Positions 28,315 through 47,982 are shown, counted from the whole stretch's first letter. The stretch is DNA of 62,054 bases, filler included, from Nemertoderma westbladi (GCA_032718475.1; 3 parts of 3 records of this genome joined end to end with filler, not necessarily neighbours in it), one strand, 5' to 3'. The notes: generated by a model from the letters alone, not told the origin. A program made the numbers and translations.

Positions 28315-28470
28315 GAGGAATATTTGATCAGAAGATGTCGGCAGCAAAGATAGCCTTTCAGTTCGCGGTAGAAGAAATAAACTATGAGACTTCAGCAAAA
28401 GATGGGGTGGTTATGATGCATACGGAAGCAGGAGTGGACATGAGTAACAGCTTCCAGTTGAGCAACAGAT
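28315..28470 (+). CDS. GRIA: GluA-like exon (start of amino-terminal domain, ATD)
   Basis: tttt[36 protein letters not shown]...[18 protein letters not shown]; phase 1-1. Confidence 0.8.
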
Positions 28471-46400: not shown

Positions 46401-47982
46401 GACGTATTGGTGCGGAATGGAAGTTTATATAGACGTATTGGTGCGGAATGTAAGTTTATATAGACGTATTGGTGCGGAATGTAAGTTTATATAGACTTAT
46501 TGGTGCGGAATGTAAGTTTATATAGACGTATTGGTGCGGAATGTTAGGCCCCCCTCACACGGAGCAACTTGTTTCTGCAACTTGTTTCTGAAACTTGTTG
46601 CTGGACCCCCTCACACACAGAAACTTGTTGCTGCAACTTGTTTCCGAAACTTGTTTCTGTGTGTGAGGACTCCAGCAACAAGTTTCTGCAACTTGTTTCC
46701 GCAACTTATTTCTGTGTGTGAGGGGGTCCAGCAACAAGTTGCTGGAAGTTAGATTCCCAGCAACTTTTTGAAAAACTTTTATTACATTCCATTTTGATAC
46801 TAGCTAATATTAGATAATTTGAGTGATGTGATATTATATATAAATGACTGGACATGTTAGCTATTTATTTGGAAATAATTGTTATTTTCTTCAGCAACAA
46901 GTTTCTGTGTGTGAGGGGGGGCCAGCAACAAGTTGCAGAAACAAGTTTCGGAAACAAGTTGCAGAAACAAGTTGCAGCAACTTGTTTCTGTGTGTGAGGG
47001 GGTCCAGCAACAAGTTTCAGAAACAAGTTGCAGAAACAAGTTGCTCCGTGTGAGGGGGGCCTAAGTTTATATAGACGTATTGGTGCGGAATGTAAGTTTA
47101 TATAGACGTATTGGTGCGGAATGTAAGTTTATATAGACGTATTGGTGCGGAATGTAAGTTTATATAGACGTATTGGTGCGGAATGTAAGTTTAAATTGAC
47201 GTATTGGTGCGGAATGTAAGTTTATATAGACGTATTGGTGCGGAATGTAAGTTTATATAGACGTATTGGTGCGGAATGTAAGTTTATATAGACGTATTGG
47301 TGCGGAATGTAAGTTTATATAGACGTATTGGTGCGGAATGTAAGTTTATATAGACGTATTGGTGCGGAATGTAAGTTTATATAGACGTATTGGTGCGGAA
47401 TGTAAGTTTATATAGACGTATTGGTGCGGAATGTAAGTTTATATAGACGTATTGGTGCGGAATGTAAGTTTATATAGACGTATTGGTGCGGAATGTAAGT
47501 TTATATAGACGTATTGGTGCGGAATGTAAGTTTATATAGACGTATTGGTGCGGAATGTAAGTTTATATAGACGTATTGGTGCGGAATGTAAGTTTATATA
47601 GACGTATTGGTGCGGAATGTAAGTTTATATAGACGTATTGGTGCGGAATGTAAGTTTAATAGATATATTGGTAACACCTTACGTATTTCATATATTATTA
47701 TTATCACCTGTACACTACATACCGGTAGGTGTTATGTACAGCAGCAGTGTAGTTTGTTGCATTCCATTGTCTGGATCATTTGGTTTCCGTAACACCCTTA
47801 TTATTCTAGAATTCCGCAGGATTCCAGAAGGTACGCGACTCTAACGGGAAGTACGCCTACCTAATGGAATCGGCACAAAACGAATACATCAACAACAAAG
47901 ACCCGTGTAACACGATGATGGTTGGTCAGAAATTGGACCAGAAAGGTTACGGCATTGCCATGCGGAAGGATTTCTATTGGGC
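28315..47982 (+). CDS. GRIA: Ionotropic glutamate receptor, AMPA-like; partial gene, 12 exons traced (~752 codons); signal-peptide exon and flip/flop-M4-C-terminal exons not found
   Basis: Exons 28315-28470, 28807-29049, 33553-33722, 35534-35755, 42956-43126, 43422-43634, 44204-44434, 44568-44745, 44932-45145, 45229-45430, 45622-45705, 47810-47982. All are GT-AG with consistent phases. Motifs [78 protein letters not shown]. Confidence 0.92.
28434..28769 (+). repeat. 41-bp tandem array of exon end plus splice donor, 8 copies
   Basis: Unit GTGGACATGAGTAACAGCTTCCAGTTGAGTAACAGAT|GTAA; the first copy is the true exon end. Confidence 0.93.
28807..29049 (+). CDS. GRIA: GluA-like exon (ATD)
   Basis: tttcAG|; [14 protein letters not shown]...[27 protein letters not shown]; |GTTAGT. 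Confidence 0.85.
29081..33593 (+). repeat. 51-bp tandem array of splice acceptor plus exon start, ~70 copies, split by a LINE
   Basis: Unit CCAGTTCTACTTTATAG|GTTTCGACTTACATTACAACGCCTTTGTAATAAA; the last copy runs into the true exon. Confidence 0.96.
29412..30373 (+). mobile_element. 5'-truncated non-LTR retrotransposon (3' part of RT ORF, 3' UTR, AT-rich tail) inserted in the 51-bp array
   Basis: LIYGCESW...[11 protein letters not shown]...RVCSC...[16 protein letters not shown] then a (TA)n/TAA tail. The array resumes in register at 30374. Confidence 0.85.
33553..33722 (+). CDS. GRIA: GluA-like exon (ATD)
   Basis: [23 protein letters not shown]...[24 protein letters not shown]; phase 1-0. 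Confidence 0.8.
33988..34225. mobile_element. Palindromic MITE with ~70-bp TIRs (Kolobok-like, TTAA-type flank)
   Basis: GGTATACTCCGGGGGTGGAGAATCTGTTTGGGGTGTAGAGGGTCTAGCCACGAGTTATAAAA and its reverse complement; flanks TTCA/TTAA. Confidence 0.85.
34290..35105 (-). mobile_element. Decayed non-LTR retrotransposon RT fragment
   Basis: [12 protein letters not shown] near 35070-35100; [14 protein letters not shown]; Cys/His-rich end; frameshifted. Confidence 0.7.
35534..35755 (+). CDS. GRIA: GluA-like exon (ATD)
   Basis: ttac[20 protein letters not shown]...[11 protein letters not shown]...GKGMD|GTAAGT. Confidence 0.8.
36655..37130. repeat. Nearly pure A/T degenerate minisatellite
   Basis: TTAATTAAATTATTAATTATATTTAA-like units. 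Confidence 0.85.
37917..41711 (-). CDS. CCDC73: CCDC73-like coiled-coil protein with 11-aa repeat tract; intronless, antisense within a GluA intron
   Basis: N-terminus [17 protein letters not shown]..., [29 protein letters not shown] resembles vertebrate CCDC73 as recalled (DFKTSLLEALEELRMRR; LKALQVSKYSLQK). First ATG at 41711; ~3.8-kb open frame. Confidence 0.75.
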   Translation of the reverse strand: MMAAKETSSEFVGSTVITDFRNNFFDILQELEIRRKVDKENECKIQSLISEKIELQRLILEQSGKIAQLNESNEKLTSLNNRMTSSSHEQKEENDCERLSTQLQLSEHEVELLKTEIKALHLSKYTAEKNARDFDNKLQVQQTSKACLQNEMAEMSERCSAVKDMQYQIQDSINNLESNIKVSLQQNTALSTDISNYKEFIGKLEKTKFSLTEELKMLQCQLKRTPSEVNSEVYVRDTELSSLKTELQGVRDSLSVMEARLKRMEVEKSNLYEQLEISHILIDKQVDTLATHLVALKNMEKLNSELDSEKNSCIEEINGLNKKWEGKERSLMNEITCLKLDLSEAKKRFNSLMGDQSKRCFVNSITFSTNGTPCGKLAPRITDVILTGATSEGEAKGMEQFLLNGAKSKEPIPMNDTDSNDLVHVDDTISNDLVPLNNFKANELIQVNDTKANEFIQDDDTKSNELVQVNDTNSNEFIQDNDTKSNELVQVNDTNSNEFIQDNDTKSNELVQVNDTNSNELIQMNDTKSNDLIQVNDTKSNDLIQVNDTKSNESVQDNDTKSNDLIQVNDTKSNNLVQMNESKSNELVQVNDTKSNELVQVNDTKSNKVNQVNDTKSNNFVQMNESKSNVLVQVNDTKPNVLDQVNDTKSNKVNQVNDTESNDLVQMNESKSSKLIQVNDIISNYLVPTNESKSNEVVPLNVTDPNELVPMNEADSNEFVAMNDADSYKFVQDNDTQSNELFQTNEFKAKEIVPMNGAKTNEILPLSETKSIKLLNGNEFKSNDHEITTYSKSNDTNANDVIFLRDTGTEDSLNKTVHKDVEKFSNNNYSENFVEREDFCVKENLVKHSDKNKLKVYTQIERNDMRKCLSSEDERKNAFKFDKSEVTGAVVDDPIMGVNDGMRVKRNITQRVDGEVNSVSVDGIKLENQSNVRVQIENDLGMGLLPHPIVSMQCFRDDIKYSESICTDRLIQYNPKPGTSVQVNYAPDPHIFQPRILTALSGTSNVSSLSTTILKCNDIDIQCLSEGKKEYNRAASVGLPKEIIDNDNLNSMRDVANNVALINEPQMSGSKRSAMMPGQSADYTKRLCVEKPQENESDYLKRLSELKANNNESYASKGAPKMVPHDLSHLSVLSRGAMKPPPTIDLPRDITCPLVASSATTPTTNPLQPFPPRPYQGARNTIPPSPTTESTLRGDCEDSNNYNISRPTTPVNNIISEEVDGQREDDSIIGENIRSSNEGNSPFQRLCREMKAMVSRSHLNRLIN
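39330..40475 (-). repeat. Coding 33-bp repeat ([11 protein letters not shown])n, ~30 copies
   Basis: In-frame degenerate 11-aa repeats inside the CCDC73-like ORF. Confidence 0.9.
42168..42460 (+). mobile_element. Dispersed repeat copy related to the element at 640-3220, without the 27-bp array
   Basis: Shared TTTGAAACAG.GATAGTTTCACCTCC, TCTTTAGCTACAAGCGTTTG, ACAATCTGAA...AAATAGCTGAGAT. Confidence 0.7.
42956..43126 (+). CDS. GRIA: GluA-like exon (ATD)
   Basis: cgc[19 protein letters not shown]...TCEE...MRNLN|GTGAGT. Confidence 0.85.
43422..43634 (+). CDS. GRIA: GluA-like exon (ATD end/linker)
   Basis: [17 protein letters not shown]...AGYW...IFTSIK|GTGAGA. Confidence 0.88.
44204..44434 (+). 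CDS. GRIA: GluA-like exon (S1)
   Basis: EFPYFM...[10 protein letters not shown]...VADGNYGS...[17 protein letters not shown]. Confidence 0.92.
44568..44745 (+). CDS. GRIA: GluA-like exon (S1, pre-M1)
   Basis: [33 protein letters not shown]...PGVFSF. Confidence 0.93.
44932..45145 (+). CDS. GRIA: GluA-like exon (M1-M2 pore loop; Q at the Q/R site)
   Basis: [25 protein letters not shown](R)|GTATGT. Confidence 0.93.
45229..45430 (+). CDS. GRIA: GluA-like exon (M3, S2 start)
   Basis: [30 protein letters not shown]...[14 protein letters not shown]. Confidence 0.95.
45622..45705 (+). CDS. GRIA: GluA-like exon (S2)
   Basis: gc[36 protein letters not shown]. Confidence 0.82.
45684..47672 (+). repeat. 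31-bp tandem array of exon end plus splice donor, ~47 copies, split by a MITE
   Basis: Unit ATAGACGTATTGGTGCGGAAT|GTAAGTTTAT; the first copy is the true exon end. Confidence 0.96.
46547..47061. mobile_element. PIF/Harbinger-like MITE with long inverted arms
   Basis: GGCCCCCCTCACACGGAGCAACTTGTTTCTGCAAC... and its reverse complement at the other end; flanks TTA/TAA at the TAA of a repeat unit. Confidence 0.88.
47810..47982 (+). CDS. GRIA: GluA-like exon (S2)
   Basis: ttc[66 protein letters not shown]; phase-2 end at the position equivalent to the R/G-site intron. Confidence 0.93.

Follow-up and report, generated by a model that had tools for sequence, protein, structure and literature searches.

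The window analysed here, a stretch of 62,054 nucleotides, contains a glutamate receptor gene in which three introns are occupied by long tandem arrays, and the unit of every one of these arrays straddles a splice site of that same gene. This raises the questions of how such arrays came about, whether they created the introns in which they lie, and which of the many copies of a splice site is actually used.

The joined gene model comprised 12 exons between positions 28315 and 47982, with 751 codons without a stop and 11 introns that were all GT-AG (Table 1). Five of the 12 exons matched iGluR families in a Pfam search (ligand-binding, glutamate-binding and channel), and the domains occurred in the order ATD, S1, pore, S2 (PF01094, PF10613 and PF00060), with the last transmembrane exon outside the window. 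Five full-length homologues that do not bear the name kainate gave 352-371 bits with the model, compared with 252-264 bits for two kainate-named ones. Exon 2 matched 55 PDB sequences, every one of them GluA1 or GluA2. Judged by these scores and matches, the gene is an AMPA-like glutamate receptor with most of its coding frame present, in line with the GluA-like assignment made previously from the sequence alone. The count of 11 introns in that sequence-only reading was right for the 12-exon model but not for the whole gene. Neither the first coding exon nor the last transmembrane exon was found in the window by motifs or tblastn, and because both lie outside it, the gene has more than 11 introns. 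A short-protein search with exon 12 gave no match. The short introns of the gene measured 83, 133, 186 and 191 nt. Assembly gaps were located at about 20019 and 51273, and no tRNA was found in the window. The neighboring gene CYFIP was 57.9-62.1% identical to all 35 sampled bilaterian proteins (35 of 120 listed matches were used), and in an unrooted tree, built without an outgroup, it formed a long branch beside Ambulacraria. The animal is thus neither a lancelet nor a vertebrate, and it may be a xenacoelomorph.

Table 1. Exons of the receptor gene, tandem arrays and inserted elements, in window coordinates.
Feature	Position	Strand	Remarks
38-bp comparator array	15160-20018	+	at least 128 copies; cut by assembly gap
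Exon 1 of model (not the gene's first)	28315-28470	+	final 36 nt serve as the functional first 41-bp copy
41-bp donor array	28433-28769	+	TRF ×8.2; 8 copies
Exon 2, amino-terminal domain	28807-29049	+	gene model; PF01094; PDB matches
51-bp acceptor array	29081-33592	+	TRF 29081-29411 ×6.5 plus 30367-33592 ×63.3; 69 copies
Element inserted in 51-bp array	29414-30368	+	after copy 6; multi-copy (contig depth 148-301, contigs continue elsewhere)
Exon 3	33553-33722	+	starts inside terminal 51-bp copy; gene model, X4 contig
Exon 4	35534-35755	+	gene model; weak self-similarity across acceptor
Exon 5	42956-43126	+	gene model
Exon 6	43422-43634	+	gene model
Exon 7	44204-44434	+	gene model
Exon 8	44568-44745	+	gene model
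Exon 9	44932-45145	+	gene model; weak self-similarity across acceptor
Exon 10	45229-45430	+	gene model
Exon 11	45622-45705	+	final 22 nt serve as the functional first 31-bp copy
31-bp donor array	45684-47672	+	TRF; 47 copies
Element inserted in 31-bp array	46547-47061		515 bp, inverted ends; flanks TTA and TAA
Exon 12, S2 ligand-binding segment	47810-47982	+	gene model; next exon outside window

The copy numbers obtained with TRF and lists of individual copies agreed with the 8, about 70 and about 47 copies that had been estimated from the sequence for the 41-, 51- and 31-bp arrays. It had also been proposed that nearly every unit carries a donor or acceptor, and this was borne out. In the 41-bp array, GT was present in 8/8 donor copies and GTAAGT in six of the seven decoys. 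The 51-bp array kept AG in 65/69 acceptor copies, and the 31-bp array had GT in 46/47 copies and GTAAGT in 44/46 decoys. As the decoy GT and AG were mostly intact, there was no sign of purging. Exon sequence made up 36 of 41, 27-40 of 51 and 22 of 31 bp of the units. Adjacent copies matched at 93% in the 41-bp array and at 97-98% in the 51-bp array (TRF), and the interiors were homogenised, with 58 of 69 units identical in the 51-bp array and 38 of 47 in the 31-bp array.

At the ends away from the exon, all three arrays ended in degenerate partial copies with 80-86% identity to it. They lay after the last donor at 28760 in the 41-bp array (16/20 identical to the exon), at the 5′ end of the 51-bp array (29/34) and after the last donor at 47650 in the 31-bp array (12/14). 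These matches may represent either seed microhomology or decayed copies, and CG-to-TG/CA changes favour decay. In the 51-bp array, a variant block recurred 816 bp apart, which is a higher-order pattern, and exon-type variants were present, one of them with 13 further exon bases. The recurring blocks, the exon-type variants and the degenerate ends match the turnover pattern described for the 'mirage' minisatellites of lancelets. The 51-bp unit consists of 17 stop-free codons in the frame of exon 3, and a 1166-codon ORF also shows this array to be open in frame. We take the element inserted in the 51-bp array, from its resemblance, to be a LINE-like 3′ fragment; its ORF at 29510-30172 had no match in Pfam. 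The element in the 31-bp array is presumably MITE-like.

Four public runs (X1-X4) contain the stretch; X2 and X3 represent one sample, and X1 may be the source of the assembly. In the DNA of X2/X3, which has other SNPs, unit cycles were present for each of the three arrays, and the consensus of the 51-bp unit was common to the two samples. Contigs of X2/X3 broke where the 41-bp array starts and where it ends, and ran from the 51-bp unit into exon 3, and the position of the 31-bp array in this sample was inferred. In X1, contig depth divided by k-mer multiplicity in the window was 26.7-29.6 in six of six array contigs, compared with 23-46 in four single-copy contigs. Depth itself is no copy number, but its uniformity per assembled copy fits the assembled copy numbers. 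Copy-number polymorphism was unreadable from contig depth, as the 31-bp unit gave 161 in X2 and 1784 in X3. An assembly or amplification artefact could be suspected from the gaps in the window, one of which ends a long array, and from this strong difference in array depth between two runs of the same sample. However, the units were found in two DNA samples, the depth in X1 agreed with the copy numbers, and variant blocks and nested insertions occurred within the arrays. We give an artefact practically no credence. The arrays are present in a second DNA sample and hence are no assembly artefact, as the earlier reading had argued.

Run X4 was guessed to be DNA, its kind being given without an RNA record, and was treated as spliced from its GT-AG joints. 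Position 28470 was joined to 28807 in two allelic contigs, which is the first donor of the 41-bp array. Exon 2 was joined to a single 51-bp unit followed directly by the body of exon 3, which corresponds to the last acceptor, and unique exon-11 sequence was joined to 47810 from the first donor of the 31-bp array. In all three arrays, the exon-proximal copy is the dominant splice site in this one run, whose contigs drop rare forms. Two earlier suggestions were thus upheld: the terminal copy is the functional exon edge, and one site is picked among near-identical decoys. None of the four X4 contigs matching 28150-30480 was an internal array unit. One 2280-nt X4 contig ran unbroken from exon 2 past exon 12, with one base more than the gene model between exons 3 and 11.

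Every use of a decoy donor would result in a premature stop (7/7 in the 41-bp array and 46/46 in the 31-bp array), so accurate splicing and decay of wrong products are indistinguishable at the donors. Among the 64 decoy AGs of the 51-bp array, the six upstream of the insertion lead to a stop and 58 add 17 × n residues in frame. Errors at these 58 acceptors would be invisible to nonsense-mediated decay, so it is more telling that the X4 contigs showed none of them. The first AG of this array would give a 76-nt intron, near the short introns of the gene, but the AG used lies 4.4 kb downstream. Exon definition would account for the choice of both donors and acceptors. Oriented scanning, the mechanism of donor choice shown for F7 in the quoted part of PMC1557585, would account for donors only. 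The 51-bp array thus offers a natural test of exon definition and 3′ splice-site choice, with dozens of identical acceptors and errors that are not hidden by nonsense-mediated decay.

It might be supposed that the arrays are regulatory, with the amino-terminal domain lengthened by 17 × n residues through the in-frame acceptors of the 51-bp array and with expression tuned by the donor arrays via nonsense-mediated decay. The stop-free products of most decoy AGs, the upstream context that these AGs share with the real site and the unit consensus common to two samples would agree with such a role. However, none of those four X4 contigs was an internal unit and the 2280-nt contig was unbroken, one unit length in three is divisible by three by chance alone, and transposon-like insertions are tolerated within two of the arrays. 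We consider regulation very unlikely, and the arrays are likely harmless repeats. Highly improbable, too, is that the duplications created these introns, i.e. Rogers-type intron gain. Intron positions were compared with 80 iGluR loci of other animals, none of which reached introns 1 and 2. Intron 9 was common to 30 of 33 loci and intron 10 to 38 of 45. Intron 11 was missing from all 44 distant homologous loci that covered its position (42 by script and two by inspection), so it is lineage-restricted, as a gained intron would be. Also in favour of gain, introns 1 and 2 would retain only about 27 and 42 nt once exon-derived sequence was removed. Counted from the farthest decoy, introns 1, 2 and 11 retain 47, 76 and 160 nt (about 47 and 150 nt had been estimated for the first and the third). 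However, the opposite splice site lay in unique sequence in all three introns, and no intron had both of its sites inside an array. Against exons 11-12, the unique part of intron 11 (134 nt) scored 16, no better than shuffles (mean 17). Vertebrate AMPA receptor genes presumably also have introns where introns 1 and 2 lie. The arrays expand introns; of the gain or expansion envisaged in the sequence-only reading, expansion stands and gain is not supported.

We also surveyed the window for further arrays. With a period of at least 18, at least five copies and merged TRF hits, 14 arrays were counted. Seeds of other arrays were a stop codon, the 3′ end of a repeat and, for a 33-bp array (×32.6), the interior of a coding ORF. 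The 33-bp array persists within its nested ORF, for which an Atlas search returned only generic coiled-coil matches. Nine of the 14 arrays have no contact with identified host coding sequence. The 13 non-coding arrays were placed randomly on the collapsed window in 20000 trials, with wholly exonic placements discarded. Three of the 13 were observed on splice sites, compared with 0.33 expected, and three or more were reached in 0.36% of trials (P = 0.0036). For any coding edge, four or more arrays were reached in 0.06% of trials (P = 0.0006). These within-window P values overstate the case, since this feature was the reason for picking the window. An intronless sulfotransferase ORF (13964-15196) reaches with its last 37 nt, among them the stop codon, into the first unit of the 38-bp comparator, and 37 of the 38 bp of this unit are exonic. 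A stop-codon array on an intronless gene argues against an origin coupled to splicing. Weak self-similarity was found across the acceptors of exon 4 (13/15, P about 0.002 against a chimeric null; possibly a fossil duplication) and exon 9 (P about 0.001-0.002 against the same null). Similarities of this strength were equalled in 44 of 1942 adjacent windows in non-coding sequence and in 17 of 651 in coding sequence, and P was 0.02-0.07 for two of 21. We claim no fossil duplications at other junctions, where the signal was significant against the chimeric null and borderline against ordinary adjacent windows. Likewise, the decayed fourth array suggested earlier, probably that at the exon-9 acceptor (44932), is reduced to a weak self-similarity that is borderline against adjacent windows.

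These observations could reflect a true mutational bias, in which coding DNA and its edges are the preferred starting points of tandem duplication and only the duplications crossing an edge survive, with no need for the spliceosome. Chromatin or break-repair hot spots are possible sources of such a bias. The within-window excess on coding edges, the exon-heavy units, the stop-codon array on the intronless ORF and the self-similarities at exons 4 and 9 all point in this direction. Several lancelet genes also bear mirages, whose origin is called unclear in the quoted text of PMC3087553. However, this is one window, picked for the feature among very many, the exon-4 and exon-9 similarities are matched by ordinary adjacent windows, and most of the arrays lie off identified host coding sequence. 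We regard such a bias as unlikely. About as unlikely is the bolder version, in which the genome amplifies coding edges (splice sites and stop codons) far above chance and independently of splicing, the arrays replace the intron body, the branch point comes from exon copies, and exon definition alone picks the last of 59 in-frame acceptors.

The explanation that we favour, and hold to be probable, is that the three arrays are splice-site-spanning minisatellites in an AMPA-like gene, born by local duplication and expanded thereafter, with the exon-proximal copy kept in use, and that they are survivors at coding edges. They would likely have started when short stretches spanning existing exon edges were duplicated locally in tandem, and slippage or unequal exchange would likely have enlarged them. 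With 14 arrays in 62 kb, the genome seems to spawn minisatellites from many kinds of sequence. Arrays wholly within coding DNA would be purged unless the length of their unit is a multiple of three, and arrays crossing a coding edge would persist because one end copy stays functional. The splice site is likely chosen by exon definition, giving the shortest exon, and nonsense-mediated decay is predicted to clear the products of decoy donors. The interiors would become homogenised and the end copies would decay. The apparent excess at edges is likely due in part to survivorship and to the post hoc choice of the window. Several points count against this explanation. Three of 13 arrays on splice sites and four on any coding edge are more than uniform birth plus survival would give; exon sequence makes up most of each of the four edge units, a hint of a real bias; the splicing evidence comes from a single run, not recorded as RNA, in contigs that lose rare forms; the silence of decoys is not guaranteed, since 6-16 and CBS use their nearest decoys; and the X4 contig has one base more than the model between exons 3 and 11.

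Minisatellites at splice sites have been known for more than 20 years. The arrays described here belong to this known, published class, which includes the lancelet mirages, human F7 and others, and they extend it. Five of six mirage features were found: head-to-tail arrangement, boundary-spanning units, conserved GT/AG, regular dominant splicing, and a homogenised interior with divergent ends. On the sixth, length polymorphism or somatic instability, X2 and X3 of one sample gave very different depth ratios. Our literature search, which was weak for subscription papers, found no genome-wide study of boundary-spanning minisatellites or of exon-edge preference.

Lancelet mirages are described, in the quoted text of PMC3087553, as tandem repeats across donor or acceptor boundaries with normal splicing, length instability, homogenised interiors and an unclear mechanism; they also occur in troponin C and PGBD5 (PMC3902484, excerpt). 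As far as these excerpts go, the mirages of Adh3, the globins BflGb6 and BflGb9, troponin C and PGBD5 have the same boundary-spanning units on the donor or acceptor side, most of which keep GT/AG, the same normal splicing, the same homogenised interior and the same excluded end copies. Units of 31, 41 and 51 bp fall within the 10-72 bp quoted for Adh3, whereas 47 and 69 copies exceed the three to six quoted for BflGb6. The present arrays also differ from lancelet mirages in their nested insertions and in an acceptor unit that is in frame and stop-free. The host is no lancelet, as its CYFIP is 61% identical to that of Branchiostoma.

Donor-spanning human VNTRs are listed, in the part of PMC1557585 quoted here, for F7 intron 7 (37 bp ×5-9), 6-16, CBS intron 13, lamin B2 and PDGF. 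The most upstream donor is used in F7, lamin B2 and PDGF, and 6-16 and CBS additionally splice at two nearby decoys. Their first unit carries the real donor, as in the 41- and 31-bp arrays. By that text, however, there is one array per gene and on the donor side only, whereas three occur in one gene here, the acceptor array uses its last copy rather than its first, and decoy use as in 6-16 and CBS was not seen at the contig level. Rogers-type gain, exemplified by potato RdRp in the excerpts of PMC4974935 and PMC2812944, likewise duplicates the end of an intron together with the start of the exon and copies the full acceptor, like the 51-bp unit. In contrast, no new donor-acceptor pair is used here, and the arrays leave the number of introns unchanged. 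This locus stands out for how densely arrays occur within one gene, for the comparator on a stop codon and for an acceptor array that is in frame. The origin of mirages is called unclear in the quoted text of PMC3087553, and a genome with three such arrays in one gene and a further one on a stop codon is well suited to testing whether they favour exon edges.

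The 51-bp array of the receptor gene (29081-33592) contains 67 AATAAA hexamers, about one per unit. They appear to be unused, because a spliced contig reads through them. In sample S2, sequenced in the two public runs X2 and X3, the sequence before position 47672 differs from that of the window, which suggests that S2 carries inserted DNA where the 31-bp array has its 3′ end. The large ORF nested in intron 4 has a coiled-coil N-terminus and a coding repeat (33 bp, 32.6 copies), and searches with this ORF revealed no family.

Tandem arrays and repeats were also found elsewhere in the window. 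The unit of the 66-bp array resembles what is presumably a LINE 3′ end with its short-repeat tail. The retroelement-like regions comprise gag/pol ORFs, which we take to be LTR-retrotransposon-like, and one element that we likewise take to be LINE-like. The AT spacer of 12 bases that occurs identically in both N gaps is probably a marker introduced during assembly. The hexokinase, sulfotransferase and CYFIP ORFs, each a single exon, share the window with the intron-rich receptor gene.

Other features of the window
Feature	Position	Remarks
54-bp array	293-621	6 copies; motif in common with 4249
27-bp array	679-2396	64 copies; flank similar to dispersed repeat at ~42205
66-bp array	4599-6509	interrupted by another LINE-like fragment
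Hexokinase	8106-9494	single-exon ORF
Phenylalanyl-tRNA synthetase-like exon	~12504-12592	one exon
Sulfotransferase	13964-15196	single-exon ORF
38-bp array	15160-20018	at least 128 copies (lower bound; assembly gap cuts array end); covers stop codon of intronless galactose-3-O-sulfotransferase ORF
Retroelement-like regions	20394-24382, 48486-51270	
Nested ORF	37917-41711	minus strand; intronless; 1264 codons; inside receptor gene's intron 4
CYFIP	54785-58597	single-exon ORF

A candidate intron gain through tandem duplication was recognized, from its sequence, in the iGluR homologue of an unrelated animal (L030:728-1085). There, a short piece of coding sequence recurs six times in decayed form, and the copies are separated by pyrimidine-rich spacers that end in CAG. 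Splicing from a GT within the first copy, a weak putative donor, to an AG before the last copy would remove 334 nt, keep the frame and add one residue.
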